Made by a program: the position numbers and the translations under genes
In this document: one piece after another, positions 24,749 to 42,170 of the stretch
How the letters are laid out: each line of letters starts with the position of its first letter
Numbering within the stretch: position 1 is the first letter of the stretch
Notes under the pieces: generated by a model
What the model saw: only the letters and a program-made list of their open reading frames with translations
Databases searched by the model: none
Told to the model about the DNA's origin: nothing
NCBI GenBank assembly: GCA_020624805.1
Contig: JAHKVW010000017.1
Span: 6,185-70,184, forward strand
Source: a bacterium
GTDB taxonomy: Bacteria; Bacillota; Clostridia; Oscillospirales; Acutalibacteraceae
Length of the DNA: 64,000 bases
Reading direction: 5' to 3'

Positions 24749-26113
<1,365 letters not shown>

Positions 26114-26129
26114 TTATATGTTGCACTGC

Positions 26130-26227
26130 AAAAAAAACGCAAAAAAATAAAGGCACCTCGGACTATGTGTCCGAGACGCCTTTGTCTCAACAGCACGAAT
26201 TATACGCCCAAATTGTTCGTTTGTCAA
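26130..26227 (-). promoter_or_regulatory. gdhA promoter plus ANTAR-type hairpin/terminator
   Basis: TTGACA-N17-TATAAT, then GAGAC[AAAGGC]GTCTC inside the terminator 5' arm (...GGTGCCTTT ATTTTTTT). Confidence 0.85.
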
Positions 26228-26328
26228 GCAATTGAATGAAATTTAACAAAACTTACTAATTGGTTTTGCAGGATTTCCGTTCTTTTCTTGCAAAATGTGA
26301 AAAGATCGGGCTCACTCAAAATGAGGGA

Positions 26329-26420
26329 TTGACATCAAAAAATAATTATGTTAAAGTGTTAGCGGAACAAAGGCGTTCATTTGAGGCAGTATTCTGCGCT
26401 GCCCCAAATGGCGCTTTTTT
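26329..26420 (+). promoter_or_regulatory. GS-like 1 promoter plus ANTAR-type attenuator, copy 1
   Basis: TTGACA-N17-TAAAGT; GAAC[AAAGGC]GTTC; terminator ending GGCGCTTTTTT. Confidence 0.85.
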
Positions 26421-26430
26421 ATCTTTCATA

Positions 26431-26474
26431 ATCATTGCGAGGGCTCGGCACGATTGTCGGCTCGCGGCAATCAC
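26431..26474. repeat. REP-like family 1 unit between the tandem attenuators
   Basis: ATCATTGCGAGG...CGCGGCAATCAC. Confidence 0.75.
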
Positions 26475-26489
26475 AACTGATCTCGATAT

Positions 26490-26539
26490 GAACAAAGGCG
26501 TTCATCTAGACTGTTCCGGGTCTAAGTGTCGCCTTTTTT
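26490..26539 (+). promoter_or_regulatory. ANTAR-type attenuator, copy 2, before GS-like 1
   Basis: GAAC[AAAGGC]GTTC; terminator ending TCGCCTTTTTT. Confidence 0.85.
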
Positions 26540-26591
26540 ATATTTATATGTTTTTATATGGCATTACCTCTGAAAAGGAGCGAGTGAGAGC

Positions 26592-27800
26592 ATGAATCAT
26601 ACAGAGCAGGAATTGATGAAGCAGATCGAAGAAGAGGACGTCAAATTCATCCGTCTTTCCTTCTGTGATATCTACGGCGTTCAAAAGAATATTTCGATCC
26701 AGCGCAGCGAACTGCCCAGAGCCTTTGAGAAAGGCATCGGGATCGACGCTTCCTACATCAACGGCTTCGGCGGCGATTACGGCAAGGATATCTGGCTCCA
26801 TCCCGAGACGGATACGATCACGGTTCTGCCGTGGAGACCCGAGCACGGCAAGGTCGTCAGGATGTTCTGTACGCTGACCTACGAGGACGGTACTCCTGTC
26901 GAGACCGACACCCGCGCGGTATTAAAGGACGCTGTCAAATACGCCCAATCAAAGGGCTATCGCTTCCACTTCAAGTCCGAGCTGCAGTTCTATCTGTTCA
27001 AGACGGACGGCGACTCGGAGAATACCGGCGTTCCCTATGACAACGCAGGGTATATGGACATTGCGCCTCTCGACAAGGGCGAGAACGTGCGCCGTGAGAT
27101 CTGTCTGACGCTCGAACAGATGGGGATCGATCCCGAAAGCTCCCACCATGAGGCAGGACCCGGACAGAACGAGATCGACTTCCGCTATTCCGATCCGATC
27201 ACTGCCGCGGACAATACCGTGACTTTTCTCAGCGTCGTGCGCACTATCGCCGCACGCAACGGGCTTTATGCCGACTTCTCCCCAAAGCCGATCAAGGATA
27301 AGACCGGCTCGGCGCTGCATATTTCCGTATCGACAAAGGCAAAATCAGGAGAGGATGTGACCGACGCCGCGATCGCGGGCATCCTGCATAATATCGCCGG
27401 TATGACGGTATTCCTCAACCCGAAGGCGGAATCCTTTGAGCGCTTCGGCAAGCACAAAGCTCCGAAGTATATCACATGGTCACAGACGAATCGTTCTCAG
27501 CTTGTATTCTCGCGGCATACCGAAAGCGGCAGCCGCTGTGCTCAGCTGCGTTCACCCGACCCTCAGGCGAATCCGTATCTGGCATACGCCCTGATGATCT
27601 ACGCGATCATGGACGGTATCGAAAACGGCAGAACGTTACCGCAGCCCACGGATGAAAACGTCTTACAGCTCATCACCGATTCAGCAGAACCCCAAAAGCT
27701 GCCCGACAGTCTGGAGAAGGCGCGTATCGAAGCAACAAATTCACCGCTTGTACAGCGGTTCATCCCCTCGGCAGTGACCATGGTTTACTGTGCAGATTAA
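26592..27800 (+). CDS. glutamine synthetase type I-like protein, catalytically degenerate (paralog 1)
   Basis: GS fold motifs (VKFIRL.FCDI.G, HHEAGPGQNEIDF, RSPDP.ANPY), but ELQF, HKAP, LVFS and QLRS replace EPEF, YEAP, IRIP and EVRS; 402 aa. Confidence 0.85.
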   Translation: MNHTEQELMKQIEEEDVKFIRLSFCDIYGVQKNISIQRSELPRAFEKGIGIDASYINGFGGDYGKDIWLHPETDTITVLPWRPEHGKVVRMFCTLTYEDGTPVETDTRAVLKDAVKYAQSKGYRFHFKSELQFYLFKTDGDSENTGVPYDNAGYMDIAPLDKGENVRREICLTLEQMGIDPESSHHEAGPGQNEIDFRYSDPITAADNTVTFLSVVRTIAARNGLYADFSPKPIKDKTGSALHISVSTKAKSGEDVTDAAIAGILHNIAGMTVFLNPKAESFERFGKHKAPKYITWSQTNRSQLVFSRHTESGSRCAQLRSPDPQANPYLAYALMIYAIMDGIENGRTLPQPTDENVLQLITDSAEPQKLPDSLEKARIEATNSPLVQRFIPSAVTMVYCAD

Positions 27801-27874
27801 CAGCGTAGTAACCACTGCATTTTACCATATTATTGTTTACCTGATAACAAAAATCATCGAAAGGAGAGCGCACC

Positions 27875-28456
27875 TTGGACTTTACAGAGCACCGGTACAG
27901 AATACTGATCGTATCCTCGGACGACAGGTTCGGCAGAGAAGTCAGCACTCTCCTGCAGGGCGACCAATTTCAGCAGGATTTTTCCCGCAGCGCGTCGGAC
28001 GCCCGCTGTAAGCTGCTCGAAAACCAATACGATTTTGTGATCGTCAACGCGCCGTTGAGGGATGAGTTCGGCTCCCGTCTGTGTATCGATATCAGCCGCA
28101 ACAACGGCACCATCGCCGCGATCTTTGCGGCAACCGATACCTATGACGAGATCTACGCGAAGGTGTCCGTGCACGGCGTTTTCGCGCTCCATAAGCCGAC
28201 CTCCAAAACACTGGTCTCTCAGGCGGTGTCGCTGATGGTGTGCGCCAGAGAACGTCTGCGGTCGTTGGAAAAGAAGGTCGGCAACACCGAGAGCAAGCTC
28301 GACGAGATCCGCATCGTCAACAAAGCCAAATGGCTGTTGATCGATCAGGAAGGGCTGAGCGAGGCGGACGCGCATAAGTATATCGAGAAGTCCGCGATGG
28401 ATGCCGGTATCACCAAACGGCTTGCCGCTCAAATGATCATTGACAAATACCTGTAA
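27875..28456 (+). CDS. ANTAR antiterminator with pseudo-receiver domain (paralog 1)
   Basis: C-terminal RIVNKAKWLLI...SEADAHKYIEKSAMD ANTAR domain; phospho-Asp position is Asn (FVIVNAP). Confidence 0.9.
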   Translation: MDFTEHRYRILIVSSDDRFGREVSTLLQGDQFQQDFSRSASDARCKLLENQYDFVIVNAPLRDEFGSRLCIDISRNNGTIAAIFAATDTYDEIYAKVSVHGVFALHKPTSKTLVSQAVSLMVCARERLRSLEKKVGNTESKLDEIRIVNKAKWLLIDQEGLSEADAHKYIEKSAMDAGITKRLAAQMIIDKYL

Positions 28457-28497
28457 TAGGCGTATTTTCTAAGAGAGAATACGTCTTTGTCTTTTTC
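28453..28497 (+). terminator. terminator between ANTAR1 and glmS resembling a degenerate ANTAR element
   Basis: AGGCGTATTTTCT/AGAGAATACGTCT stem plus TTTTT; 3' arm ACGTCTTTGTC is complementary to GACAAAGACGT. Confidence 0.6.
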
Positions 28498-28535
28498 GGG
28501 CAGTTGACATATTATATTAGTAAAGGAGAACACTT

Positions 28536-30362
28536 ATGTGCGGAATAGTAGGATATGTCGGACCGCGTGACTGCGCGGATGTGCTGGTATCGGCTCTGAC
28601 AAAGCTGGAATATCGCGGATATGACTCCGCCGGTATCGCCGTGTTTGAAAACGGAAAGATCGAAGTCGCCAAAACCAAGGGCAGACTGGCTGATCTGACC
28701 GAGAAGATGGAGAAAGAAGGCAAGCCGCAGGGTCACGCCGGAATCGGCCATACGCGCTGGGCGACCCACGGCGAGCCGCGCGATATCAACTCTCACCCCC
28801 ACTCGGGGCGCAGGGTCACCATCGTCCATAACGGCATCATCGAGAACTACAAACAGCTCAAGCAATTCCTGATCGAAAACGACCGCACCGAGTTCCTCTC
28901 CGATACCGACACCGAGGTCGTGGCGCAGCTGCTTGACTTCTACTATGAGGGCGATCCCATTCGCTGTATCCGCCGTACGCTCCACGAGCTGCGCGGTTCC
29001 TTTGCGCTGGGGATCGTTTTCGCCGACCGTCCCGAGACCGTTTACGCGGTACGGTGTGAAAGCCCGCTGATCGTCGGTCAGGGTCAGGACGAGGTGTTCA
29101 TCGCCTCCGATGTGCCCGCCATCATCAAATATACCAAGGAATACTATCTGCTGGAGCAGGGCGAGATCGCGATCCTGAAAAACGGCAGTGTAGATTTTTG
29201 CACCCTGCACGGCAGAAAACTGAAGAAGGAACTGCTCTTTGCCGACTGGGATGAGGACAGCGCCGAAAAGGGCGGTTATCCGCACTTTATGCTCAAGGAG
29301 ATCCATGAGCAGCCCACCGCCGTCAAAACGACGGTCACGCCGCGCATCGAGGACGGTCTGCCCGATCTGTCCGAGTGCGGCATCATTTTCGGCACGCTGA
29401 GAAATCTGAAAAACATCTTCATCGTCGCCTGCGGTACCGCTATGCACGCCGGTATGGTGGGCAAATATGTCATCGAAAAGCTCGCGCGTGTACCCGTAAC
29501 AGTCGATATCGCCTCCGAGTTCCGCTATCGCGATCCGCTGTTGACGCACGACGACCTGATCATCATTATCAGCCAGAGCGGTGAGACCGCCGACAGTAAG
29601 GCAGTACTGAGTCTCGCCAAGTCGCGCGGCGCCAAAACGCTCGCGATCGTCAACGTCAAGGGCAGCTCCATTGCCAGAGAAGCCGATATGGTCATCTACA
29701 CCCACGCGGGTCCCGAGATCGCCGTCGCCTCCACCAAGGCGTATATGGTCCAGCTCGCGGTCATGTATCTGTTCGCCTTTGAAACAGCGCTCGCCAAGGG
29801 TAAGCTCGAGGAGAAGGAGTGCCGCAGACTGACTGCCGCGCTGCTCAAAATGCCCGATGTGATCGAGAAAACCATCGACAAGGTCATGGATATGTGCCAG
29901 TATGTTTCCACCAAGCTGATCACCGCCGACAGCCTGCTGTATATCGGCAGGGGGCTTGATTACGCGCTGTCGATGGAGGGCTCCTTAAAGCTCAAGGAGA
30001 TCAGCTATATTCATTCCGAAAGCTACGCCGCGGGTGAGCTCAAGCACGGTACGATCTCGCTGATCACCGAGGGGATGCCCGTGATCGCTGTCGCGACGCA
30101 GAACACCCTGCTCGAAAAGACCGTCAGCAACATCAAAGAGGTCAAGGCGCGCGGCGCGATGACCATCGTGATCTGTGACGAAGAAGCGGATATCGACGCG
30201 GACGCGGTCGACTACATGATCCGCATCCCGAAGATCAATGAGACGCTGATGCCGATGGTCGCCACAGTGCCCATGCAGCTCCTCGCGTACTACACCTCGG
30301 TCAACAAAGGCAACGACGTCGATAAGCCCCGCAATCTCGCCAAATCCGTCACGGTTGAGTAA
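28536..30362 (+). CDS. glmS: glutamine--fructose-6-phosphate aminotransferase
   Basis: MCGIVG, EYRGYDSAG, GHTRWATHG, SQSGETAD, ELKHG, PRNLAKSVTVE. Confidence 0.97.
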   Translation: MCGIVGYVGPRDCADVLVSALTKLEYRGYDSAGIAVFENGKIEVAKTKGRLADLTEKMEKEGKPQGHAGIGHTRWATHGEPRDINSHPHSGRRVTIVHNGIIENYKQLKQFLIENDRTEFLSDTDTEVVAQLLDFYYEGDPIRCIRRTLHELRGSFALGIVFADRPETVYAVRCESPLIVGQGQDEVFIASDVPAIIKYTKEYYLLEQGEIAILKNGSVDFCTLHGRKLKKELLFADWDEDSAEKGGYPHFMLKEIHEQPTAVKTTVTPRIEDGLPDLSECGIIFGTLRNLKNIFIVACGTAMHAGMVGKYVIEKLARVPVTVDIASEFRYRDPLLTHDDLIIIISQSGETADSKAVLSLAKSRGAKTLAIVNVKGSSIAREADMVIYTHAGPEIAVASTKAYMVQLAVMYLFAFETALAKGKLEEKECRRLTAALLKMPDVIEKTIDKVMDMCQYVSTKLITADSLLYIGRGLDYALSMEGSLKLKEISYIHSESYAAGELKHGTISLITEGMPVIAVATQNTLLEKTVSNIKEVKARGAMTIVICDEEADIDADAVDYMIRIPKINETLMPMVATVPMQLLAYYTSVNKGNDVDKPRNLAKSVTVE

Positions 30363-30556
30363 AGGCCCCCTTTCCTAAGGAGATTCCCCTGTTAGGGGAA
30401 ATGTCCGCAAAGCGGACAAAAGGGTCTGCAGCCTCCGCTGAGGAGTGCTGGCGCCGATAGGCGACTGGGGGTTGATACTTTTTAAGTCATATATTTCAAT
30501 AAAGATTGCAGGCAACCCTCCGCCCCTGCGGGGCACCTCCCTTAGAAAAGGGAGGC
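30363..30556. repeat. REP-like family 2 cluster (CCCCT...AGGGG hairpins)
   Basis: Short GC hairpins (TGTCCGCAAAGCGGACA, CCTCCCCTTAGAAAAGGGAGG) similar to 32192-32460 and 33777-33802. Confidence 0.6.
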
Positions 30557-30800
30557 AAAAAAGTACAGACCCCGTCGCAAGGCGGAGTCTGTAAACCAAA
30601 GGGGAGTGTGTGCAATTTTCTTTTGGCAATAAATAATGTTGATGAAGTATATATTGTTATAAGAAATCTCCCCTAAAGTCCGTTTTTGATCCTGATTTGA
30701 ATAGATCAAGATCACGAAAAAAGAAGGGTTTTGGGATTCCAAAACAGCAAAAAAGCGCCTTGAACCCCCTTGGGGGATTCAAGACGCCTTTGTCTTTACT
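30557..30800 (-). ncRNA. candidate ANTAR-controlled small RNA (~245 nt)
   Basis: Strong promoter plus attenuator with no RBS-led ORF downstream; two internal hairpins; ends at a hairpin plus U6 at 30557-30592. Confidence 0.5.
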
Positions 30801-30835
30801 GAGTGCATTATACGCTCCGATAACCAAATTGTCAA
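30749..30835 (-). promoter_or_regulatory. orphan promoter plus ANTAR-type attenuator
   Basis: TTGACA-N17-TATAAT; AGAC[AAAGGC]GTCT; terminator ...GGGGGTTCAAGGCGCTTTTTT. Confidence 0.85.
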
Positions 30836-30874
30836 GTGTTTTCAAAATATTTTAACGCTTTGATGTGCGAAAGA

Positions 30875-30903
30875 TTGACACGGCACGCCGATAATGATAT
30901 GAT
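30875..30903 (+). promoter_or_regulatory. sigma70 promoter of GS-like 2 (no ANTAR hairpin in the leader)
   Basis: TTGACA-N17-TATGAT. Confidence 0.65.
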
Positions 30904-30941
30904 ACAGAAGAAGATTTCACTTCTGAAAAGAGGGTGTCACC

Positions 30942-32150
30942 GTGACAACGGAAGAAAACCAGATCATGCAGTATATCGAGGAAGAGGACGTCAAGTTCAT
31001 CCGTCTTGCTTTCTGCGATATTTTCGGCGCGCAAAAGAATATCTCCGTCCAGCCCACCGAGCTGCAAAGGGCATTTGAAAGGGGCTATCCGATCGACGCT
31101 TCTTATGTGTCGGGCTTCGGCGGCGATTACGGCGTCGACGTTTGGCTGCGTCCCGAAGCGGATACCGTTTCCGTTCTCCCGTGGCGGCCGGAGCACGGCA
31201 AGGTGATCCGGATGTTCTGCGCACTGTGCTACTCAGACGGCAGACCGATCGAGGCGGATACGCGCTCTTTGTTGCGCGGCGCTGTGGAATATGCCCGCCA
31301 AAAGGGCTATCGCTTCCACTTCAAGTCCGAGATGCAGTTCTATCTTTTCAAGACCGATGAAAACGGAAACCGAACCGCTATTCCCTACGATCACGCGGGT
31401 TATATGGATATCGCGCCGCTGGATAAGGGCGAGAATATCCGCCGCGAGGTATGCCTGACGCTCGAGCAGATGGGCGTCATGCCCGAAAGCTCGCATCATG
31501 AAGCGGGACCCGGTCAGAATGAGATCGACTTCAAGTATGCTCAAGCTCTCCCTGCCGCCGATAATACAAGCACCTTTATCTCCGTCGTCCGCACGATCGC
31601 CGCGCAAAGCGGCTTGTATGCCGATTTTTCGCCGAAGCCGATCTCCGATAAGCCCGGCTCGGCGCTCCATATCCGTATGTCTGTCAAAGCAAAGGACGGC
31701 GAGGACGTCACCGAACGCGCTATCGCGGGTATCCTGAAGAACATCGCGGACATGACCATTTTTCTCAATCCGACCGAAAAATCCTTCAAGCGATTCAACA
31801 AGATGAAAGCGCCTAAATTTATCACATGGTCGGACAAAAACCGCGCTCAGCTGATTTTTGCGACCCGTACCGAGAGCGGCGGCAGATGCTTACAGCTTCG
31901 CTCTCCCGACCCCAACGCCAATCCCTATCTCGCGTTCGCGCTGATGATATACGCGGCGGTCGACGGCATCCAAAACGACTATCCGCTTTCTCCTTCGATC
32001 GATACAGAGCTGCAATACCTCTCCTCATCCGAGCAAAACGAGATAGAGCTTTTGCCCGATACTATCGTCAGGGCGCAGAACGCGGCTCTGAACAGCGACT
32101 TCATCAAGCGGTTTGTCCCCGACAGCATCATCAAAGCATATTGTAACTGA
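30942..32150 (+). CDS. glutamine synthetase type I-like protein, catalytically degenerate (paralog 2)
   Basis: Same length (402 aa) and the same substitutions as paralog 1 (EMQF, MKAP, LIFA, QLRS). Confidence 0.85.
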   Translation: MTTEENQIMQYIEEEDVKFIRLAFCDIFGAQKNISVQPTELQRAFERGYPIDASYVSGFGGDYGVDVWLRPEADTVSVLPWRPEHGKVIRMFCALCYSDGRPIEADTRSLLRGAVEYARQKGYRFHFKSEMQFYLFKTDENGNRTAIPYDHAGYMDIAPLDKGENIRREVCLTLEQMGVMPESSHHEAGPGQNEIDFKYAQALPAADNTSTFISVVRTIAAQSGLYADFSPKPISDKPGSALHIRMSVKAKDGEDVTERAIAGILKNIADMTIFLNPTEKSFKRFNKMKAPKFITWSDKNRAQLIFATRTESGGRCLQLRSPDPNANPYLAFALMIYAAVDGIQNDYPLSPSIDTELQYLSSSEQNEIELLPDTIVRAQNAALNSDFIKRFVPDSIIKAYCN

Positions 32151-32191
32151 TAATACGAAAGGCAGTCTGTTTTCGTGACCGATAGAGCACC

Positions 32192-32460
32192 AAGCCTTCC
32201 CCTCGGGGGGAAGGTGGGCAATTTGCTCTGTGCAAATTGGTCGGATGAGGGGCTGACTTATCCGACTGTTCTTCTTAACAAAGAGAGTAATGTTTTTCCT
32301 TTATTCTCGGTATACTTTTCGCCTCACCGAGTCCGACATCACCGGGAAAGGCTATCCCCCTCATCCGTCACCCTACGGGCGACACCTTCTCCTCGCCGGA
32401 AGCGGCTCCCCCCTTGTCCTTCGGACATTCCCCCAACGGGGGTACCCCGAGGGGAAGGCT
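32192..32460. repeat. REP/MITE-like family 2 cluster between convergent genes
   Basis: Termini AAGCCTTCCCC...GGGGAAGGCT; internal CCCCTCATCCG/CGGATGAGGGG inverted copies. Confidence 0.65.
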
Positions 32461-32559
32461 TTTTGGCGACATATGACAATAAAAGATTTATCTTTTGGAC
32501 GAAAGTTCAAGGGACTGTGGAAACAAAGCATGACGCTTTATTTCCACAGTCCCTTCATT

Positions 32560-33738
32560 TTATCTCAATAACTTTTTGATTCTCTCTACCGCTTCTACGG
32601 TGTTCTCTCTGTCGCCGAAGGAGGTCAGTCGAAAATAGCCTTTTCCCTGACTGCCGAAGCCCTCGCCGGGGGTTCCGACCACCTGCGCGTTTTCGAGAAG
32701 GTAATCGAAGAACTCCCAGCTTCCCATGCCTTTGGGGCACTCCAGCCAGATATACGGTGAGTTTTTACCGCCCGTATAGAATATCCCCAGCTCGTCGAGC
32801 GCCGCGGAGATAATCCGCGCGTTCTCTTTATAGTATTCGATATTTGCTTTGAATTCTTTTTGTCCCTCTTCGGAGAATACGGCGGCCGCGGCGCACTGCA
32901 CGGGATAGGACACGCCGTTGAATTTGGTCGCCTGACGGCGGTACCAAAGGGCATGGATATTGTGACCGTCGCGGACAAGCTCCTTCGGGATCACCGTATA
33001 GCCGCAGCGCACACCGGTAAAGCCCGCTGTCTTTGACAGAGAGCAGAATTCGATCGCACATTCTCTTGCCCCGTCGATCGCAAAGATCGAGCGCGGACAA
33101 TCATCCTCGATAAACGCCTCATATGCCGCGTCGTACAGGATGACCGCGTCATTTTTAATGGCGTAATCCACCCACGCCTTGAGCTGATCGGTACTGTAAG
33201 CCGCGCCGGTGGGATTATTCGGCGAGCAAAGATAGATGATATCCGCATGGATGCTCTCGTCGGGCATGGGCAGAAAACGATTCTCCCGCGTACCCGGCGC
33301 GTATACGATCTTCCTGCCCGCCATGATGTTCGCGTCGACATAGACGGGATAGACGGGATCGGGCACCATCACGGTGTTATCGGCGCCGAAAATATCGCCG
33401 ATATTGCCCGTGTCGGACTTTGCGCCGTCGCTGATAAAGACCTCATTCGCTTCGATCTTAACGCCGAAGCCGTCATAGTATCGGGCGACCGCCTCACGTA
33501 CAAAATCATAGCCCTCATATTCGGGATAACCCTTGAAGGTCTCTTTGAAGCTCAGCTCTCCCGCGCCGACCTTCATCGCCTGTACGGCAGTGCGCGGCAG
33601 CGGGAGCGTAACGTCGCCGATGCCGAGCCGGATGAGCTTTTGCTCAGGATGCGCGGCGGCATACGCCGAAGTCTTTTTCGCTATCTCGGCAAAGAGATAG
33701 TTTGGGACTAAATTATCAAAATTTCGGTTGATCTTCAT
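32560..33738 (-). CDS. dapL: LL-diaminopimelate aminotransferase
   Basis: NYLFAEIAKK, LGIGDVT, SDGAKSD, CSPNNPTG, SLSKTAGFTGVRCG, FRLTSFG. Confidence 0.95.
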   Translation of the reverse strand: MKINRNFDNLVPNYLFAEIAKKTSAYAAAHPEQKLIRLGIGDVTLPLPRTAVQAMKVGAGELSFKETFKGYPEYEGYDFVREAVARYYDGFGVKIEANEVFISDGAKSDTGNIGDIFGADNTVMVPDPVYPVYVDANIMAGRKIVYAPGTRENRFLPMPDESIHADIIYLCSPNNPTGAAYSTDQLKAWVDYAIKNDAVILYDAAYEAFIEDDCPRSIFAIDGARECAIEFCSLSKTAGFTGVRCGYTVIPKELVRDGHNIHALWYRRQATKFNGVSYPVQCAAAAVFSEEGQKEFKANIEYYKENARIISAALDELGIFYTGGKNSPYIWLECPKGMGSWEFFDYLLENAQVVGTPGEGFGSQGKGYFRLTSFGDRENTVEAVERIKKLLR

Positions 33739-33800
33739 ATCGTTTCCTTCCTTGGCAGGTTGAGATACAGTTATTCAAGGCTCCCTTTGGTAAAGGGGAG

Positions 33801-34382
33801 CTATAGATATCTGTCGATCACGATCTGAGCCGCCTGACGCTTGGTGATCCCCGCCGCCATCGCCTGCTGTTCGATATACCGATGAGCATCGATCTCGCTC
33901 ATATCCTCATTATCGATCAAAAACCATTTTGCTTTGTTGACGATGCGGATCTCCTGCAGTTTATCCTCGGCTTTGCCCGCCTTTTTCTCTACGGTTCTCA
34001 ACATCTCGCGCGCGGAGATCAAGAGAGATAACGCCTGTATGATCGTCTGCTGTGAGGACGGCTTGCGAATGACAAAAACGCCGTAAGACACGGTTCTTTG
34101 CATGATGTCCTCGTACACATCCGAGGGCGCGAAGATGACCGCCAGCGTGCCGACATGATCCGTCACGTCGATGCACAGGTGCGAGCCGAACTCGTCGCTG
34201 AGCGGCGCGTTGACGATCACAAAATCATAGCTCTTTTCCGTCAGAACGCGTCTTGCCTCGCCCGCGTTCGTCACATGATCGGTGTGAAAATGTCTTTCGC
34301 GCAGAAGGGAGCTTATCTCTTGCATGAACCTTTCAGACAGCGAGACCACCAACGCATGATAGCGAACCTGTTCTAAAGTCAT
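33801..34382 (-). CDS. ANTAR antiterminator with pseudo-receiver domain (paralog 2)
   Basis: YDFVIVNAPL (Asn at the phospho-site); RIVNKAKWFLI...SEIDAHRYIEQQAM. Confidence 0.9.
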   Translation of the reverse strand: MTLEQVRYHALVVSLSERFMQEISSLLRERHFHTDHVTNAGEARRVLTEKSYDFVIVNAPLSDEFGSHLCIDVTDHVGTLAVIFAPSDVYEDIMQRTVSYGVFVIRKPSSQQTIIQALSLLISAREMLRTVEKKAGKAEDKLQEIRIVNKAKWFLIDNEDMSEIDAHRYIEQQAMAAGITKRQAAQIVIDRYL

Positions 34383-34431
34383 ATTCTCCCTTCACCTCTT
34401 TTCGATCCGTACACGGAAGTACGATCAACGT

Positions 34432-34516
34432 AAAAAGGCGCTATTCGGGCACAAGCTCCCAAATAAACGCCTTTGTTTATCGAGGCTATTATAGCATTAT
34501 TCGCATATTATGTCAA
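34432..34516 (-). promoter_or_regulatory. ANTAR2 promoter plus ANTAR-type attenuator (autoregulation)
   Basis: TTGACA-N17-TATAAT; AAAC[AAAGGC]GTTT; terminator ...CCCGAATAGCGCCTTTTT. Confidence 0.85.
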
Positions 34517-34570
34517 TCGTTTAAAACGTCAAAGCGTTAAATTTTTTTGATAATTTTTTCACGATTACCC

Positions 34571-34663
34571 TTGACAAATGAAAATTCGCGTCGTATAATG
34601 CGTGCTGTAAAGACAAAGGCGTTTTGAACCTGCGTGGTTTGAAACGCCTTTGTCTATTTCTTT
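34571..34663 (+). promoter_or_regulatory. glnN promoter plus ANTAR-type attenuator
   Basis: TTGACA-N17-TATAAT; AGAC[AAAGGC]GTTT; 3' arm AAACGCCTTTGTCT then ATTTCTTT. Confidence 0.88.
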
Positions 34664-34682
34664 ACGAAAAGGAGAAGGTATT

Positions 34683-36776
34683 ATGGCAAACGTAGCAGAA
34701 TATTTCGGAAGTCTGGTATTTGACGACAAGACGATGAAAGAGCGGCTGGATCCCAAAATCTACAAGCAGCTCCGCAAAACGATCGACGACGGCGAGCAGC
34801 TGAATATTCAGGTAGCGAACGCCGTAGCCGCCGCGTTAAAGGAATGGGCGGTAGAAAAGGGCGCGACCCACTATACCCACTGGTTCCAACCGCTGACCGG
34901 TATCACCGCCGAAAAGCATGACAGCTTTATCACTCCCTCGCCCGACGGCAGAGTGATCATGGAATTCTCCGGCAAGGAGCTGATCAAGGGCGAGCCTGAC
35001 GCGTCCTCGTTCCCCTCGGGCGGTCTGCGCGCGACCTTTGAAGCAAGAGGCTATACCGCGTGGGACCCCACCTCCTACGCTTTCATCAAGGGCAAGACCC
35101 TTTGTATCCCCACCGCGTTCGCTTCCTACAGCGCCGACGCGCTGGATAAAAAGACGCCGCTTTTGCGCTCCATGCAGGCGCTGAACATTCAGGCAACGCG
35201 CGTCTTGAAGCTCTTCGGCAACGAGGACGTCAAGCGTGTCGTCACCTCTGTCGGACCCGAGCAGGAATACTTTTTGGTTCCCAAGGAGCTGTACGCGAAG
35301 CGCAAGGATCTGATCTATACGGGACGAACCCTCTTCGGCGCGCGTCCTCCCAAGGGTCAGGAGCTCGACGATCACTATTTCGGTACCATCAAGCCGCGTG
35401 TGCTCGCCTATATGGAGGATCTCAACGACGAGCTGTGGAAGCTCGGCATCCTCGCGAAAACCCAGCATAACGAGGTCGCGCCCGCTCAGCATGAGCTGGC
35501 TCCCATCTACACGACGACCAATGTCGCGACCGATCACAACCAGCTGACGATGGAGATCATGCAGAAGGTCGCGGAGCGTCACGGTCTGGTATGTCTGCTG
35601 CACGAAAAGCCCTTTAAGGGCGTGAACGGCTCGGGCAAGCACAACAACTGGTCGATCGGCACGGATACCGGCGTCAACCTGCTCACTCCCGGTGAGACGC
35701 CGTTTGAGAACGTCCAGTTCCTGCTGTTCCTCGTAGCGGTCATCAAGGCGGTCGACGAGTATCAGGATCTGCTGAGACTGTCCGTCGCGACCGCCGGTAA
35801 CGATCACCGTCTGGGCGCGAATGAAGCGCCGCCCGCCGTCATCTCCATCTTCCTCGGCGACGAGCTGACTGCCGTTCTGGACGCGATCGAGAACGATACC
35901 GAGTATGAGGGCACCAAGAAGAAATATATGAAGCTCGGCGTTGACGTTCTGCCGCGTTTCAGACGCGACACCACCGACCGCAACCGTACCTCGCCCTTTG
36001 CGTTCACGGGCAACAAGTTCGAGTTCCGTATGCTCGGTTCCTCCAACTCCATCGCCTGCTGCAATATGATGCTCAACTCCGCTGTCGCGGAAGTCTTGAA
36101 GCAGTTTGCGGATGTGCTGGAGAATTCCGAGAACTTTGAAAATGATGTTCACAACCTGATCCGCAAGACGATCAAGGATCACAAGCGGATCATCTTCAAC
36201 GGCAACGGTTATGACGACGCTTGGATCGAAGAAGCCGAAAAGCGCGGACTCTCCAATCTCAGAACCACCGCCGACGCGATGCCGCATCTGCTGGATGAAA
36301 AGAACGTCGCGATGCTGACCTCTCATAAGGTGTTCACCAAAGCGGAGCTGGAAAGCCGCATGGAGATCATGTTGGAAAACTACGTCAAGCAGGTCAACAT
36401 CGAAGCACTGACGATGGTGGATATGACCGGCAAACAGATCATCCCCGCGATCGAAACCTATCTGATGAAGCTTTTGAAGAATGTTTCTATGAAGAAGGCG
36501 ATCTCGCCCGATATCAGCTGCGCCTATGAGACCGCGAACATCGAGAAGCTCTCCGCTGCCTGTGACGAGATGAGCGCCAACGCGGGTATCCTCGAGCGCT
36601 TGGCGGAGCACCTCGCTCATATCGATGATATCGTGGAGCAGGCGAACTTCGTCCGCGACGAGCTCCTGCCGCAGATGGATACGCTGCGCAGCTATGCCGA
36701 CGCCGCGGAAGCGGTCGTTGACGCGGAGATCTGGCCGCTGCCGACCTACGGCGAGCTGCTCTTCGGCGTAAGATAA
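34683..36776 (+). CDS. glnN: glutamine synthetase type III
   Basis: [75 protein letters not shown]; catalytic motifs intact. Confidence 0.96.
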
Positions 36777-36779
36777 ATA

Positions 36780-36825
36780 GGTTGAGATTGCCACAGCATT
36801 GACAGATCAATGCTTCGCAATGACG
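36780..36825. repeat. REP-like family 1 unit
   Basis: GGTTGAGATTGCCACAGC...GCTTCGCAATGAC. Confidence 0.8.
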
Positions 36826-36835
36826 ATTGATAAAA

Positions 36836-36876
36836 GTACAAAGGCGTACTCTGCTTTCGCGGGGTACGCCTTTATT
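36836..36876 (+). promoter_or_regulatory. intercistronic ANTAR-type attenuator before amt
   Basis: GTAC[AAAGGC]GTAC inside the AAAGGCGTACTCTGC/GCGGGGTACGCCTTT stem. Confidence 0.82.
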
Positions 36877-36900
36877 AGTGGTCAGTGGTTAGTGGTCAGT
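36877..36900 (+). repeat. heptamer tandem repeat AGTGGTY x3
   Basis: AGTGGTC AGTGGTT AGTGGTC AGT. Confidence 0.8.
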
Positions 36901-36979
36901 TAACCGATGACCGAAACAAAATAAACAATGCTAATGACCGGCAATATGCAGCCGGTTACTCAATTTGGAAGGTGAAACT

Positions 36980-38707
36980 ATGACTATGACAGTAGAATTC
37001 TGGTTCCTGATCGGAGCCGCGCTGGTGTTCTGGATGCAGGCAGGCTTTGCCATGGTAGAGGCGGGCTTTACCCGCGCCAAGAACGCCGGAAACATCATCA
37101 TGAAAAACCTGATGGACTTTTGTATCGGCACGGTCGTGTTCGCTCTCTTGGGCTACACGATCATGATGGGCGAGGATACCCTGTTCGGACTGATCGGTAT
37201 CCCGAACATGGACTTGTTCGGTCACTTCAAGGAGTTCATCGCGTCTCCCGGGAACGGCGACTTTACCGCCGCTTCCACATTCGTATTCAACCTCGTTTTC
37301 TGCGCCACCACCGCGACCATCGTATCCGGCGCGATGGCGGAAAGAACGAAATTCTCCGCTTACTGTATCTACTCGGGCGTTATCTCGCTGTTCATCTACC
37401 CGATCGAAGCGCACTGGATCTGGGGCGGCGGCTGGCTCTCTCAGCTGGGCTTCCATGACTACGCAGGTTCCTGCGCGATCCACATGGTCGGCGGCATCGC
37501 GGCATTGATCGGCGCGGCGGTGCTCGGACCCCGTCTCGGAAAATACGAGCGTGATGAAAACGGCAAGGTCGTCAAGGTCAACGCATTCCCCGGTCACAAC
37601 ATCGTCATCGGCGCGTTGGGCGTATTCATCCTGTGGCTCGGTTGGTACGGCTTCAACGGCGCGGCGGCGACTACTCCGAGTGAGCTTGCTTCTATCTTTT
37701 TGACTACCACCATCGCTCCCGCGGTCGCCACCTGCGTCACGATGGCATTCACATGGATTAAAAACGGCAAGCCCGATGTATCCATGTGCCTGAACGCATC
37801 CTTGGCAGGCTTGGTCGGAATCACCGCAGGCTGCGACGCGCTTGACGCGATCGGCGCGACCGTCGTCGGCGTTGTCAGCGGTATTCTGGTTGTCGTCGTG
37901 GTCGAGGTGCTTGACATGAAGCTGCACATCGACGATCCCGTCGGCGCGGTCGGCGTTCACATGGCAAACGGTATCTGGGGCACGATCGCGGTCGGTCTGC
38001 TCGCGAATCCCGACGCTCCCGCAGGGCTCAGCGGCTTGCTGTATACAGGAGATTTCCGTCAGCTCGGCTTACAGCTCTTAGGCTTCGGCTCCGTTGCGGT
38101 ATACGCGGCGATCATGATGGTCATCACCTTTGTGATCATCAAAAAGACGATCGGACTGCGCGCAACGGCTGAGGAAGAGATCATGGGTCTCGACATCACC
38201 GAGCACGGCCTGCCGTCGGCATACGCGGGCTTTGCGGCGACATCGGAGGACTATTCCGTATACGGCGAGGACGTCGCCGTCGTCGCGGGTGAAACGCCCG
38301 TGGCAGAAGCTGTCGAGGTCAAGAGCGTTCCGTCCTTTGATAACGGCGAGCAACGGTTCACAAAGATCGAGATCATCTGTAAGGAAGCTCGGTTTGAAAA
38401 GCTCAAGAGAGCGATGGCACAACTCGGCATCACCGGCATGACCGTTACCCATGTCATGGGCTACGGCTCACAGAAGGGCAAGCCCGAGTATTACCGCGGT
38501 GTTTTGGTCGATACCAACCTGCTGCCGAAGATCCAGGTCGAGATGGTCGTATCCGCGATCCCTGTCCGCGACGTGATCGAAGCGGCAAAGAGAGCGCTCT
38601 ATACCGGACACATCGGCGACGGCAAGATCTTCGTTTACAACGTAGATAATATTGTCAAGGTGCGCACCGGAGAAGAAGGCTATGCCGCCTTGCAGGATGT
38701 GGAATAA
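36980..38707 (+). CDS. amtB: ammonium transporter fused to a C-terminal P-II (GlnK-like) domain
   Basis: MQAGFAMVEAG, HWIWGGGWL, DYAGSCAIH, WLGWYGFNG, DDPVGAVGVH; P-II GITGMTV...YRG...TGHIGDGKIFV...VRTGE. Confidence 0.95.
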   Translation: MTMTVEFWFLIGAALVFWMQAGFAMVEAGFTRAKNAGNIIMKNLMDFCIGTVVFALLGYTIMMGEDTLFGLIGIPNMDLFGHFKEFIASPGNGDFTAASTFVFNLVFCATTATIVSGAMAERTKFSAYCIYSGVISLFIYPIEAHWIWGGGWLSQLGFHDYAGSCAIHMVGGIAALIGAAVLGPRLGKYERDENGKVVKVNAFPGHNIVIGALGVFILWLGWYGFNGAAATTPSELASIFLTTTIAPAVATCVTMAFTWIKNGKPDVSMCLNASLAGLVGITAGCDALDAIGATVVGVVSGILVVVVVEVLDMKLHIDDPVGAVGVHMANGIWGTIAVGLLANPDAPAGLSGLLYTGDFRQLGLQLLGFGSVAVYAAIMMVITFVIIKKTIGLRATAEEEIMGLDITEHGLPSAYAGFAATSEDYSVYGEDVAVVAGETPVAEAVEVKSVPSFDNGEQRFTKIEIICKEARFEKLKRAMAQLGITGMTVTHVMGYGSQKGKPEYYRGVLVDTNLLPKIQVEMVVSAIPVRDVIEAAKRALYTGHIGDGKIFVYNVDNIVKVRTGEEGYAALQDVE

Positions 38708-38802
38708 CAGATTTATGAGGAGCCGCAGTTCCCTTCAAATAGTCAAAAACCCTGAATAACAACTCTCATTAAGTTGCCAAAAAGACAGGCTCCCCTAAGT
38801 CA

Positions 38803-38835
38803 CAGACCCCGAGGACATATTCCCCGGGGTCTGCA
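38803..38835 (+). terminator. terminator after amt-PII
   Basis: CAGACCCCG...CCGGGGTCTG hairpin then CATTTT. Confidence 0.6.
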
Positions 38836-38842
38836 TTTTATC

Positions 38843-39136
38843 TTATATACTGTTTTCCAAATCTCTCTTGCCGTACATTACTCTCAGGATAGAAACAGTT
38901 CCGGCGCTCTCTTCTACCGAATAGAACACAAGATAATTGTCAACAGGCATCAATCGAATATCATTTTTATAGACAGGAAACCGCTTTGGCAGTTGATCGA
39001 GATTTTCGATCCTGTTCTCCAATCGGGATAACTGTGCTTCGGCGTTTTCCGGTGACAGCAATGACAAGGCGATATACTCATAGATTGCGCGGATATCTTT
39101 ATCTGCCTGTGAAGAGATGTTTACCGAATAATTCAC
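38843..39136 (-). CDS. type II toxin, RelE/ParE family
   Basis: YSVNISSQADKDIRAIYEYIA...VDNYLVFY...ILRVMYGKRD. Confidence 0.88.
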   Translation of the reverse strand: MNYSVNISSQADKDIRAIYEYIALSLLSPENAEAQLSRLENRIENLDQLPKRFPVYKNDIRLMPVDNYLVFYSVEESAGTVSILRVMYGKRDLENSI

Positions 39137-39438
39137 AGTTTATAATCCTTTCTGATATCGGCAAACGCTTGCTTTGACTCTTTGACCTTGCCGCTCTTGA
39201 CGTCATCGATCCCCTTTTGCAGTTCAAGGTCGATCTCCTGCTCGGTGAGCTGATTGAAGTTCAATACACTTTGTTCAGGCAATTTCAGTTCAAACGGCAT
39301 TCCTCTTTGCAATATGATCTGTTTGTAAAACATATTGATCGCATTGGATGCGGGGATTCCGAGTGCGGATAGTATACTTTCTGCTTGCTCTTTTAATTCC
39401 GGTTCGATCCTCACATAAAGATTTGCGGTTTTTGACAT
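39133..39438 (-). CDS. type II antitoxin, RelB/DinJ family
   Basis: LYVRIEPELKEQAESILSALGIPASNAINMFYKQIILQRGMPF; GTGA overlap with the toxin. Confidence 0.9.
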   Translation of the reverse strand: MSKTANLYVRIEPELKEQAESILSALGIPASNAINMFYKQIILQRGMPFELKLPEQSVLNFNQLTEQEIDLELQKGIDDVKSGKVKESKQAFADIRKDYKL

Positions 39439-39531
39439 TTTCAATGCTCCTTTCCGTGTGTTCTGTATCTATTATACACAATTGTAAGCACAAACGCAAT
39501 ACATCTGACCGAAATAGTACCGGATCATTTC

Positions 39532-39609
39532 TTGACAAACATCATGACAAGTAATATAATACTTGATGGCAAAGACGCCTTGAATCTCCAAAGCGTCTTT
39601 GCCTTTTTT
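39532..39609 (+). promoter_or_regulatory. purF-carAB promoter plus ANTAR-type attenuator (AAAGAC loop variant)
   Basis: TTGACA-N17-TATAAT; GGC[AAAGAC]GCC; 3' arm GCGTCTTTGCC then TTTTTT. Confidence 0.8.
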
Positions 39610-39627
39610 ATGTAAAAAAGAGGTTTT

Positions 39628-41061
39628 ATGATGAACAATATCCATGAAGAATGCGGCGTGTTCGGCATCTACAGCACGGATGATGACGATTTAGCGGCGT
39701 TGACCTATTACGGGCTGTATGCCTTACAGCACCGCGGACAGGAAAGCGCCGGTATTGCCGTGAACGATGACGGCGTGTTCCGCTGTATCAAAGGCGAAGG
39801 CTTGGTCAGCGAGGTGTTCAGCGGCGACAAGCTCCGATCCCTCGGGACGGGTCATATCGCTGTCGGTCATGTGCGTTATGCCACCACCGGCAGCAACGCC
39901 GCCCAGAATATCCAGCCGCTCTTGGTCAACCACCACAAGGGCAGGATGGCGCTGTGCCATAACGGCAATCTGTCCAATTCCTATCTGCTGAGAACAAGGC
40001 TGGAGGAAAACGGCGCGATCTTCCATACCACCACCGATTCCGAGGTTATCTCCTATATGATCGTACAGGAGCGACTGCGGCAGGGCTCGATCGAAAAGGC
40101 TGTCAGCTCGGCGATGGATACGATCGAGGGTGCGTATTCCCTCGTGATCTGCTCCCCGCAAAAGCTGATCGCCGTTCGTGATCCGCACGGTTTTCGTCCG
40201 CTGTGCTACGGCGTGACCGACAGCGGCAGTGTGGTATTCGCCTCGGAATCCTGCGCGCTGGACGCGGTCGGCGCCAAGCTCGTCAGAGATTTGATGCCGG
40301 GGGAGATGGCGATCGTCGACAAAAACGGTCTGCGATTCGATACGACGCACTGCGGCAAAGTGCCGAAACACTTTTGCGTGTTTGAATACATTTATTTTGC
40401 GCGTCCCGATTCGGTGATCGACGGCGCGTCTGTCAGTCTATGCCGCCAGCGAGCGGGCAGATTTCTGGCAAAAGAACACCCTGTGGACGCGGACATCGTG
40501 ATCGGTGTTCCCGATTCGGGGTTAGAGGCGGCGATCGGGTACTCGTATGAATCGGGGATACCATACGCTATCGGCTTCACCAAGAACAAATATATCGCCC
40601 GCACGTTTATCACTCCGGGACAGGGCTCGCGTGAAGCGGGCGTGGGGATCAAGCTCAATCCGATCCGTGAGATCGTCAGGGATAAGCGCGTCGTGCTGAT
40701 CGATGATTCGATCGTGCGTGGCACCACCTGCCGCCGTATCGCCGATCTCTTGTGGCAGGCGGGGGTCAAAGAGATCCATATGCGCGTCAGCGCCCCGCCC
40801 TTTGTCGCGCCGTGCTACTACGGTACCGACATCGACTCCGCCGATGTGCTGATCGCCAATCGAATGAGCACAGATGAGATCGCAAAGGAGATCGGCGTGA
40901 CTTCGCTCGGTTACCTCAGTATTGAAAATGTCAGACTGCTGACGGGAACGGACAGCGGCTTTTGTACCGCTTGTTTCGGCGGCAATTATCCGACCGCGAT
41001 CCCCGACAAAACAGCGAAGAATCGCTTTGAAACCAAAATCAGTGAACAGCAAAAGGGATGA
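39628..41061 (+). CDS. purF: amidophosphoribosyltransferase
   Basis: EECGVFG, LQHRGQESAG, VGHVRYAT, VLIDDSIVRGTT. Confidence 0.96.
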   Translation: MMNNIHEECGVFGIYSTDDDDLAALTYYGLYALQHRGQESAGIAVNDDGVFRCIKGEGLVSEVFSGDKLRSLGTGHIAVGHVRYATTGSNAAQNIQPLLVNHHKGRMALCHNGNLSNSYLLRTRLEENGAIFHTTTDSEVISYMIVQERLRQGSIEKAVSSAMDTIEGAYSLVICSPQKLIAVRDPHGFRPLCYGVTDSGSVVFASESCALDAVGAKLVRDLMPGEMAIVDKNGLRFDTTHCGKVPKHFCVFEYIYFARPDSVIDGASVSLCRQRAGRFLAKEHPVDADIVIGVPDSGLEAAIGYSYESGIPYAIGFTKNKYIARTFITPGQGSREAGVGIKLNPIREIVRDKRVVLIDDSIVRGTTCRRIADLLWQAGVKEIHMRVSAPPFVAPCYYGTDIDSADVLIANRMSTDEIAKEIGVTSLGYLSIENVRLLTGTDSGFCTACFGGNYPTAIPDKTAKNRFETKISEQQKG

Positions 41062-42170
41062 ATGGAATGAATGACAATTCACAATTCGATCGCAAATTGA
41101 TTTTAGAAAACGGCGCCTTGTTCTACGGAAAAGGGTTCGGCTGTACGGACGATAAGGTCGTTGAGATCGTGTTCAATACTTCGCCTGTCGGTTATCAGGA
41201 GATCCTCTCCGACCCGTCCTATACCGATCAGGGCGTCGTGATGGCGTATCCGCTCATCGGCAACTACGGCATGGCGGAGGATGACTACGAGTGCGACACG
41301 CCGACGATCGGCGCGCTGATCGTGCGCGAATATAACGGCGAGCCGTCCAACTTCCGCAGTAAGGAGCCCTTGGAGGATGTGATGAAGCGTTACGGTATCG
41401 TCGGCGTCAGCGAGATCGATACCAGACGGTTGATCCGACATATCCGTGATTACGGCTCATGCAAGGCGCTGATCACCTCCGCAAATACTCCGGCAGAGGT
41501 TGCCGAAAAAGCGATAAAAGAAGCCTCGCTCCCGCATGACGCTGTCAGCCGCGTCAGCAGGAATCGCTTTCAAAAATACGATTCAACCGAGCATTTGTAT
41601 CATGTCGTCGCGATCGACTGCGGCATGAAAATGAACATCGTGCGCTCACTCACACAAAGAGGCTGTGATGTGATGGTCGTTCCGTGGGACGCACGCGTGC
41701 GTGATATCCTTTCGCTCGATCCGGACGGTATCTTTTTATCTAACGGCCCCGGCAACCCGGAGGATGTTCCCGAGGTGATCGACGCTGTGAAGGAGCTGAT
41801 CGGCACTGTTCCGATTTTCGGTATCTGTCTGGGACATCAGATCCTGTCACTCGCCTACGGAGCGAAAACCTATAAGCTGAAATTCGGTCATCGCGGCGGC
41901 AATCATCCCGTCAAAAATCTGCTGACAAATCAAATCGAGATCACCTCGCAAAATCATTCTTACGCGGTCGACGCGGAAAGTCTGAAAAAAACGCCGCTCA
42001 CCGCGACGCATATCAATCTTCTGGACAACACGGTCGAAGGCGTCGAGTGCGCGAAAGACGCCGTCTTTGGTGTGCAGTATCATCCCGAATCCGCTCCGGG
42101 GCCGCAGGACAGCTCCTATCTGTTTGACCGGTTTATCGATTGGATGAAGGAGGCGAAAGACAATGCCTAA
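41058..42170 (+). CDS. carA: carbamoyl-phosphate synthase small subunit
   Basis: [43 protein letters not shown]. Confidence 0.96.

Follow-up and report, generated by a model that had tools for sequence, protein, structure and literature searches.

Single-hexaloop hairpins that overlap leader terminators in a nitrogen-assimilation island of an Acutalibacteraceae genome are candidate ANTAR target sites

Results

We analyzed a 64,000-nucleotide (nt) stretch of bacterial DNA (Clostridia, Oscillospirales, Acutalibacteraceae; assembly GCA_020624805.1, contig JAHKVW010000017.1, positions 6,185 to 70,184 of the forward strand). It is referred to here as the window, and all coordinates are counted from its first letter. 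Gene calling with Pfam and NCBIfam revealed a nitrogen-assimilation island at 24.7-45.3 kb, in which a small RNA hairpin with a six-nucleotide loop recurs eight times, each time overlapping a transcription terminator. By their sequence, the hairpins look like binding sites for the two ANTAR proteins encoded in the region. The genomes nearest to the window are rumen metagenome-assembled genomes labelled Ruminococcus sp. or Clostridiales, with protein identities of 94-99%.

The island begins with gdhA, encoding glutamate dehydrogenase (GDH; 24749-26095, minus strand). On the plus strand follow the gene for a 402-residue protein similar to GSI-alpha glutamine synthetases (GS-like protein 1; 26592-27800) and, directly 3' of it, the ANTAR1 gene (27875-28456), whose product consists of a pseudo-receiver (N58), a long helix and an ANTAR domain. 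The gene for GS-like protein 2 (30942-32150, plus), which has its own promoter and no attenuator, is separated from ANTAR1 by glmS. The ANTAR2 gene (33801-34382, minus) is followed by dapL, encoding LL-diaminopimelate aminotransferase (32560-33738, minus). The plus strand then carries glnN for a type III glutamine synthetase (34650-36776), the gene of an ammonium transporter fused to a P-II domain (amt; 36965-38707) and the purF-carA-carB operon of glutamine-consuming enzymes (39628-45342).

The original prediction described single-hairpin, ANTAR-type attenuators on these genes, and all eight copies were found at the coordinates and on the strands it had given. Five follow a perfect consensus promoter, TTGACA-17-TATAAT (12/12 positions). 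These are the copies of gdhA (promoter 26199-26227, hairpin UUGAGAC-AAAGGC-GUCUCGG at 26171-26190, both minus), of a unit previously considered an orphan and here assigned to a small RNA (promoter 30807-30835, hairpin AAGAC-AAAGGC-GUCUU at 30781-30796, minus), of ANTAR2 (promoter 34488-34516, hairpin GAUAAAC-AAAGGC-GUUUAUU at 34462-34481, minus), of glnN (promoter 34571-34599, hairpin AAGAC-AAAGGC-GUUUU at 34610-34625, plus) and of purF (promoter 39532-39560, hairpin GGC-AAAGAC-GCC at 39568-39579, plus). An independent consensus scan of 13.8 kb found five perfect promoters, each directly 5' of a copy. The promoter of the GS-like operon is near consensus (TTGACA-17-TAAAGT, 10/12 with an extended TG; 26329-26357, plus), and its leader carries two copies, GAAC-AAAGGC-GUUC at 26365-26378 and AUGAAC-AAAGGC-GUUCAU at 26488-26505. 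The eighth copy, AGUAC-AAAGGC-GUACU at 36835-36850 (plus), lies between glnN and amt. This copy and the second GS-like copy are internal rather than promoter-proximal, which corrects the earlier description.

At the six promoter-proximal copies the loop starts 15, 11, 15, 13, 15 and 10 nt after the end of the -10 box, within the predicted range of 10-15 nt. Judged from the consensus promoters, the RNA ahead of the stem would be 0-5 nt long. Every stem is closed by C-G as predicted; the stem length, put at 3-5 base pairs (bp), was too narrow, since three copies reach 6-7 bp.

The hairpins had also been proposed to form the 5' arm of a terminator, and this was seen at all eight copies: in the minimum free energy fold, the loop and 3' arm are paired to a GCCUUU-type arm further downstream, which a U-tract follows. 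At gdhA, the terminator (26141-26183, minus; -24.1 kcal/mol) has a stem at 26149-26183 that takes up the loop and 3' arm of the hairpin and is followed by a U-tract. The GS-like leader has one terminator for each of its hairpins (26369-26421, -25.1 kcal/mol; 26494-26539, -19.8 kcal/mol; both plus). The remaining terminators are those of the small-RNA unit (30745-30791, minus; -30.2 kcal/mol), ANTAR2 (34428-34477, minus; -23.0 kcal/mol), glnN (34611-34665, plus; 20-bp stem, -31.4 kcal/mol), amt (36840-36876, plus; -25.3 kcal/mol) and purF (39568-39609, plus; -22.2 kcal/mol). Hairpin and terminator are thus mutually exclusive at all eight copies; exclusion of this kind, with a terminator or with the ribosome binding site, is a defining property of ANTAR-target RNA (Ramesh 2012, Mehta 2021). 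Terminators fold with -20 to -31 kcal/mol versus -0.6 to -7 kcal/mol for the hairpins alone, suggesting that termination is the default state. The two GS-like copies are 70-125 nt apart and have their own terminators, and this leader therefore appears to hold two attenuators in series rather than a dual motif.

The motif is strongly enriched in the window. CAAAGRCG occurs 21 times versus 5.1 expected. Twelve hairpins combine this core with a stem of 3 bp or longer, whereas 200 dinucleotide shuffles gave 0.81 on average and never more than 4; the 12 include two reverse-strand images, those of the symmetric glnN and purF terminators. Stem variation was compensated, as predicted: among the eight paralogous copies, 95% of stem cells are paired, and both partners have changed in four of five pairs. 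When the partner was shifted by 1-3 columns, pairing fell to 35-47%. Three matches were discarded. A covariance model (CM) match at 28476-28495 (minus) corresponds to the 3' arm of an ordinary terminator that follows ANTAR1, and matches at 34639-34658 and 39588-39607 (both minus) are reverse-strand images of the glnN and purF terminators. No Rfam family matched the window at the gathering score, and nothing relevant appeared up to E = 10 in 25900-40000.

To assess the motif in relatives, 76 loci were retrieved from species-representative genomes with an ANTAR protein profile, mostly from rumen and gut Ruminococcus-like bacteria, Oscillospiraceae, Lachnospiraceae, Acutalibacteraceae and Eubacterium. 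We scanned their 1.05 Mb for any ANNGNN hairpin whose loop is taken into a downstream terminator. Among the 817 hairpins found, AAAGGC was the most frequent loop (144/817), followed by AAUGGC, AAAGAC, AAAGGU, AAGGGC and AAGGGU; loci L049 and L050 carried AGAGAC. The claim that the loop keeps A1 and G4 held in all eight window copies, and in relatives these two positions were constant while positions 2, 3, 5 and 6 drifted. There were 184 unique copies, 173 of them closed by C-G. A recognizable promoter lay directly 5' of 128/184, with a perfect consensus in 84, and the distance from the -10 end to the loop was mostly 11, 13 or 15 nt. The downstream genes were alike across genomes: GS-like/ANTAR operons, glnN, gdhA, purF and amt.

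A CM search had been suggested as a check. A 20-nt model built from the window copies gave 169 matches. Across 46 distinct hairpins from the window and the 76 loci, pairing was 96.9%, four of five pairs covaried and the closing C-G was invariant; slid controls gave 38-49% pairing. The short stem is thus maintained by pairing rather than by sequence, with a conserved closing pair, as in ANTAR-target RNA.

The canonical ANTAR motif has two hexaloop hairpins, P1 and P2, 2-25 nt apart (Ramesh 2012, PMC3369931; Mehta 2021). To look for a second hairpin, any ANNGNN hairpin of at least 3 bp with a linker of 2-25 nt was sought around all 173 C-G-closed copies. Partners were no more frequent than chance: 9/173 upstream (5.2%) and 12/173 downstream, versus 8.7% (about 15) expected from the density of ANNGNN hairpins in the same DNA. 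The few upstream candidates overlapped the -10 box. At the promoter-proximal copies, the 0-5 nt ahead of the stem leave no room for P1, as had been argued. Internal copies likewise had no partner: the amt copy of locus L020 begins 8 nt past the glnN stop codon, and in several genomes the second GS-like copy begins about 16 nt after the preceding U-tract. With partners no commoner than chance and no room on the 5' side, the tandem arrangement is absent from these sites.

Compared with the published ANTAR seed alignment (Ramesh 2012, Fig. S1), a comparison that had also been proposed as a check, the window hairpins are the same hairpins letter for letter. Listeria eutG P1, GUAC-AAAGGC-GUAC, is identical to the amt copy. 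Enterococcus faecalis eutA P2 and eutG P2 read GC-AAAGGC-GC and GC-AAAGAC-GC, eutP P1 of the same species reads CAC-AAUGGC-GUG, and Klebsiella oxytoca nasF carries AAAGGC (PMC3369931). In Geobacter, the GnfR site CAGGCAANGGCGCC can be written as GGC-AANGGC-GCC and has the same form as the purF copy. Located across the terminators of the nif and glnK-amtB leaders, this site was bound in vitro by phosphorylated GnfR in a gel-shift assay (PMC2995071). This identity with validated hairpins marks each single window hairpin as a bona fide ANTAR hexaloop by sequence.

The genomic context provides candidate regulators, with ANTAR genes lying behind the motif both in the window and in the relatives. 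ANTAR1 and ANTAR2 are 55% identical and share a receiver-like fold, a 49-residue helix and an ANTAR domain (PF03861; E-values 2.6e-13 and 4.2e-11). The best full-length superposition of an AlphaFold model (predicted local distance difference test score 86.7) was with RNA-bound EutV (6WW6_B; template modelling (TM) score 0.78); AmiR gave a TM score of 0.63, and the fold also matches Rv1626. When aligned to Rv1626 and ArlR, the phospho-acceptor aspartate at the end of beta-3 is replaced by Asn58, invariant in 16 family sequences, and Ser-Ser replaces the acidic pair after beta-1, so that the domain lacks the features of a two-component receiver. With asparagine at the acceptor position, it is a pseudo-receiver like that of AmiR and should not be phosphorylatable. 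K152, E163 and H167 are invariant and align to EutV K149, E160 and Y164, of which Y164 stacks on G4; AmiR also has a histidine at the G4-stacking position.

With the GlnA equivalog model TIGR00653, whose cut-off is 429 bits, the two GS-like proteins reach no more than 266 and 275 bits, and their 402 residues compare with 462 model positions. Their nearest solved structures are firmicute GSI-alpha enzymes. The window thus holds two short GS-like paralogs, 67% identical, besides the type III GS, together with two ANTAR paralogs; GS-like 1 adjoins an ANTAR gene and GS-like 2 does not. Among the 76 loci, a GS-like gene lies directly 5' of the ANTAR gene in nearly every locus where both were found. 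This near-universal adjacency makes the GS-like protein an obvious candidate for a sensor that would hold or release the ANTAR protein. By analogy with AmiC-AmiR and NasS-NasT, it most likely controls the ANTAR protein according to glutamine or nitrogen status. In Bacillus, a feedback-inhibited GS serves as a regulatory partner. A paper on Clostridium thermocellum, going by its title, reportedly found that deleting the type I GS adjoining an ANTAR gene deregulates nitrogen metabolism, which we take as a lead only.

Transcript evidence came from assembled contigs of rumen metatranscriptomes, which are of low depth and mix strains. One contig begins at 26364/26365, at the first GS-like stem, and extends past both attenuators. 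For ANTAR2, contigs from two independent runs stop at 34468, in no case reaching the promoter. A glnN contig begins at 34618, and the divergent ANTAR2-glnN promoter region (34469-34617) was uncovered in three RNA runs. These contig ends, which fall on the predicted 5' ends or slightly inside them, are suggestive: they are compatible with the predicted start sites but not decisive.

The hairpin at 30781-30796 (minus) had been described as an orphan. This did not hold, as a conserved non-coding RNA of about 125 nt (about 30555-30690, minus) lies downstream of its attenuator (30745-30796), with a strong terminator of its own (30564-30593). Two further hairpins lie between the attenuator and this RNA, which averages 86% identity across ten genomes with differing flanks, contains no plausible open reading frame (ORF) and folds as a long GGGGAG/CUCCCC stem around an invariant unpaired stretch, UACUUCAUCAACAU. 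A 189-nt contig from run X1 covers 30555-30727. An 84-residue ORF at 30375-30629 (minus) was rejected as the gene behind this attenuator, having no Pfam match in a region made up of repeats and the conserved non-coding RNA. The sequence makes the 125-nt RNA a candidate ANTAR-controlled, nitrogen-regulated small RNA.

UACUUCAUCAACAU (30640-30653, minus) is complementary to the gdhA mRNA from +8 to +21 (26075-26088, minus), forming 13 bp and a single mismatch (-14.7 kcal/mol). Extended over the ribosome binding site, the duplex reaches -26.5 kcal/mol, about 3 standard deviations beyond the mean and second best of 133 start regions in the window. This complementarity is suggestive only; gdhA may be a target. 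Short GC-rich palindromic repeats of the type CCCCTnnnAGGGG occur between glmS and the small RNA (30379-30426 and 30511-30556). Metatranscriptome contigs place them next to many different sequences on either side, indicating multi-copy elements like repetitive extragenic palindromic sequences.

Discussion

Taken together, these results suggest, with a probability of about 0.74, that the sites are transcription attenuators whose default is termination and which open when an ANTAR antiterminator binds one hexaloop hairpin. In the mechanism we infer for ANTAR binding, the resulting read-through, the transcription starts and the role and signal of the GS-like protein, a strong sigma-70 promoter would start the RNA 0-5 nt before a weak 3-7 bp hairpin with the C-G-closed loop A-A-A-G-G/A-C. 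Left unbound, the loop and 3' arm would pair with a GCCUUU-containing arm emerging 20-35 nt later, forming the base of the terminator and stopping transcription. Once free, an ANTAR1 or ANTAR2 dimer would clamp the hexaloop; by homology to EutV, G4 would be flipped out and stacked on His167, with contributions from Lys152 and Glu163. The clamped hairpin would withhold the bottom 6-10 bp of the terminator, and polymerase would read through into gdhA, GS-like-ANTAR1, ANTAR2-dapL, glnN-amt/P-II, purF-carAB and the small RNA.

A single hexaloop is plausible as a complete binding site because, in the EutV crystal structure, both ANTAR domains of the dimer contact one hexaloop at a time (Walshe 2022, PMC8934654). 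That work redefined the minimal ANTAR site as one hexaloop and left open whether natural single-hexaloop sites exist. P1 of EutV targets is thought to serve early recruitment. In the window, the hairpin would be the first RNA to emerge and the terminator would close only after its long apical stem, which may buy the time that P1 otherwise gives.

Several points weigh against this model. In EutV, deletion of P1 or a longer linker abolishes antitermination, and the authors expected lone hexaloops to work only where polymerase imposes no time limit (PMC8934654); a co-transcriptional single site thus runs counter to the one well-studied case. Support for the start sites comes from consensus promoters and a small number of contig ends at low depth, and a contig of run X1, a run that may include DNA, begins at 34564, 5' of the glnN -35 box and 42 nt before the predicted start. 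The larger covariation count used a CM-derived alignment that was selected by and fitted to the model, and it therefore leans towards structure; the slid controls and the window-only count do not hinge on that selection. A loop shared by gdhA, glnN and amt is unexpected if nitrogen supply affects GDH and GS in opposite ways. The GS-like and ANTAR paralogs of the window suggest two sensor-regulator pairs, which could account for gdhA and glnN sharing it. Finally, the link between these proteins and the hairpin is a prediction rather than an experimental tie.

ANTAR binding is a prediction here, and the loop might instead be bound by a different RNA-binding protein or by a small RNA, or it might form a minimal riboswitch for a small molecule. 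P-II and GS-like proteins are also products of the regulon, which includes a conserved small RNA as well, and this would fit such a reading. We consider it improbable. The hairpins are letter-identical to those bound by EutV, NasR and GnfR, their invariant positions are exactly the ANTAR determinants A1 and G4, and the motif precedes ANTAR genes in the window and at almost all loci. A hairpin of 14-20 nt is too small for a metabolite pocket of known type, and no Rfam family matches.

Marginally less probable still is that these are canonical dual-hairpin sites whose P1 is degenerate or not a hexaloop, or whose real start lies further upstream. The requirement for P1 in EutV would fit, as would the X1 contig upstream of the glnN promoter; published dual searches also match GS+ANTAR leaders in other Clostridia, among them Alkaliphilus and Caldicellulosiruptor, and the amt leader of C. 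thermocellum. The spacing argues otherwise, with five perfect and one near-consensus promoter ending 10-15 nt before the loop in the window and 128/184 copies of relatives placed likewise. So do the upstream ANNGNN hairpins, found at 5.2% versus 8.7% by chance and then overlapping the -10 box, and the cramped internal copies, namely the L020 amt copy within 8 nt of the glnN stop and the second GS-like copy about 16 nt after a U-tract.

A DNA operator at +1 to +20, with the inverted repeat as the palindrome bound by a DNA-binding nitrogen regulator, is very unlikely. Six copies do sit just 3' of promoters, a common position for repressors. The arms vary yet stay complementary around a fixed asymmetric center, the opposite of a palindromic operator; every copy lies on the transcribed strand and overlaps a terminator, and internal copies far from any promoter are conserved. 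Least likely of all are ordinary leader terminators alike by descent or chance: terminators are common and the glnN and purF motifs lie wholly within the terminator stem, but the motif exceeds its frequency in shuffles about 15-fold, CAAAGGCG does not vary between unrelated leaders or between Clostridia orders although terminator stems need no set sequence, and the small stem covaries independently of the terminator.

The proposed attenuators closely resemble the eut leaders controlled by EutV/EutW in E. faecalis and Listeria (PMC3369931, PMC8934654). Both have the same C-G-closed hairpin (loops AAAGGC, AAAGAC or AAUGGC in eut), an overlapping intrinsic terminator and a regulator with receiver fold, long helix and ANTAR domain. 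In contrast to the P1-linker-P2 arrangement of EutV sites, those in the window consist of one hairpin at the 5' end of the RNA; the window regulators lack the phospho-acceptor aspartate and have no histidine kinase nearby, and the targets are central nitrogen assimilation genes rather than ethanolamine genes.

GnfK/GnfR of Geobacter sulfurreducens (Ueki & Lovley 2010, PMC2995071) likewise places a nitrogen regulon under antitermination, with the site over the terminator, and CAGGCAANGGCGCC in the nifH, nifEN and glnK-amtB leaders was described in 2010 as one conserved site. That paper does not address P1, and a later paper reported dual hairpins in related Pelobacter. Unlike the window proteins, GnfR is a phosphorylated two-component regulator, and it acts in a different phylum, at RpoN promoters and in longer leaders.

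AmiC/AmiR of Pseudomonas aeruginosa, NasS/NasT and NasR share with the window a non-phosphorylatable receiver-like domain (AmiR) or a ligand-binding partner or domain, as well as the nitrogen theme. The partner proposed here is GS-like, whereas AmiC and NasS are sensors of the periplasmic-binding-protein type, and the published RNA targets of AmiR, NasT and NasR are drawn as dual hairpins. Outside the ANTAR family, BglG/SacY also uses one protein-stabilized hairpin, the ribonucleic antiterminator (RAT), that competes with an overlapping terminator; there the protein has an unrelated CAT/PRD fold, the RAT is a 29-30 nt hairpin rather than a hexaloop, and control is by the phosphotransferase system.

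Bioinformatic ANTAR regulons of Desulfotomaculum and Pelobacter have the same gene themes as the window (GS, glutamate synthase (GOGAT), amt and P-II), and C. acetobutylicum nitR and C. thermocellum Clo1313_2030/2031 show the same GS-ANTAR gene pair. Those regulons were found with the dual-hairpin model, which gave only single hits in Oscillospiraceae and Lachnospiraceae genomes. Such single hits would fit most sites in these families being single hairpins that the dual model misses.

ANTAR control of nitrogen genes is already known (GnfR, NasR, NasT, AmiR), and GS+ANTAR pairs have been listed earlier. Full-text literature searches returned no description of single-hexaloop antitermination regulons or of ANTAR control in Ruminococcus. 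What appears to be new is the arrangement of one 5'-terminal hexaloop directly against a terminator, the breadth of this design over Oscillospirales-like and Lachnospirales-like genomes, and its pairing with pseudo-receiver ANTAR proteins beside GS-like proteins.

We put forward a broader proposal tentatively, at somewhat under even odds: that one 5'-terminal hexaloop suffices co-transcriptionally and P1 is dispensable; that this design, operated by non-phosphorylatable ANTAR proteins with GS-like sensors, is the main nitrogen switch of Oscillospiraceae and Lachnospiraceae in the rumen and gut; and that it drives a trans-acting small RNA, a possible repressor of gdhA. ANTAR regulators occur widely, and both the definition of their RNA site and the searches for it have used two tandem hexaloops. 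Our results suggest that dual-hairpin CMs miss much of the Clostridia ANTAR regulon. The many natural single-hexaloop sites set against terminators make the "recruitment hairpin" model directly testable. They also outline a candidate ammonia-assimilation circuit for abundant rumen and gut fibre degraders, composed of GS-like sensor, pseudo-receiver ANTAR protein, hairpin and small RNA.

Other observations

Two further features of the island were noted. The region upstream of glmS (28457-28535) contains no glmS ribozyme, as judged by Rfam; glmS lies after the ordinary terminator of ANTAR1, and promoter-like matches there are only weak. A gene for a RelB-family antitoxin (39133-39444, minus) lies between amt and purF.

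A second structured element was seen in the relatives. It is about 130 nt long, of the form GCGYCGAG..CCGGAGCCCUCRGAUAACGACGG...GGAGUUAUAYGAGGR..AGCGGAGG..ACGAGGCGUGAU, with a 12-bp helix in which base changes are compensated. The window contains no copy of it, and no Rfam family matches. Copies were located in L034 (2970-3124, minus), L010 (13090-13228, minus), L030 (a tandem pair at 3452-3579 and 3584-3715, plus) and L081 (about 4000-4170 in plus-strand coordinates, with the element on the minus strand), with a remnant in L011. The element sits in transcribed non-coding DNA, just 3' of ANTAR attenuators. In a metagenome scan, 2 of 40 matches were real and the others mostly chance; on one metagenome contig, it directly follows the 3' end of a 16S rRNA. 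A mobile structured RNA seems a better fit for it than a nitrogen riboswitch.

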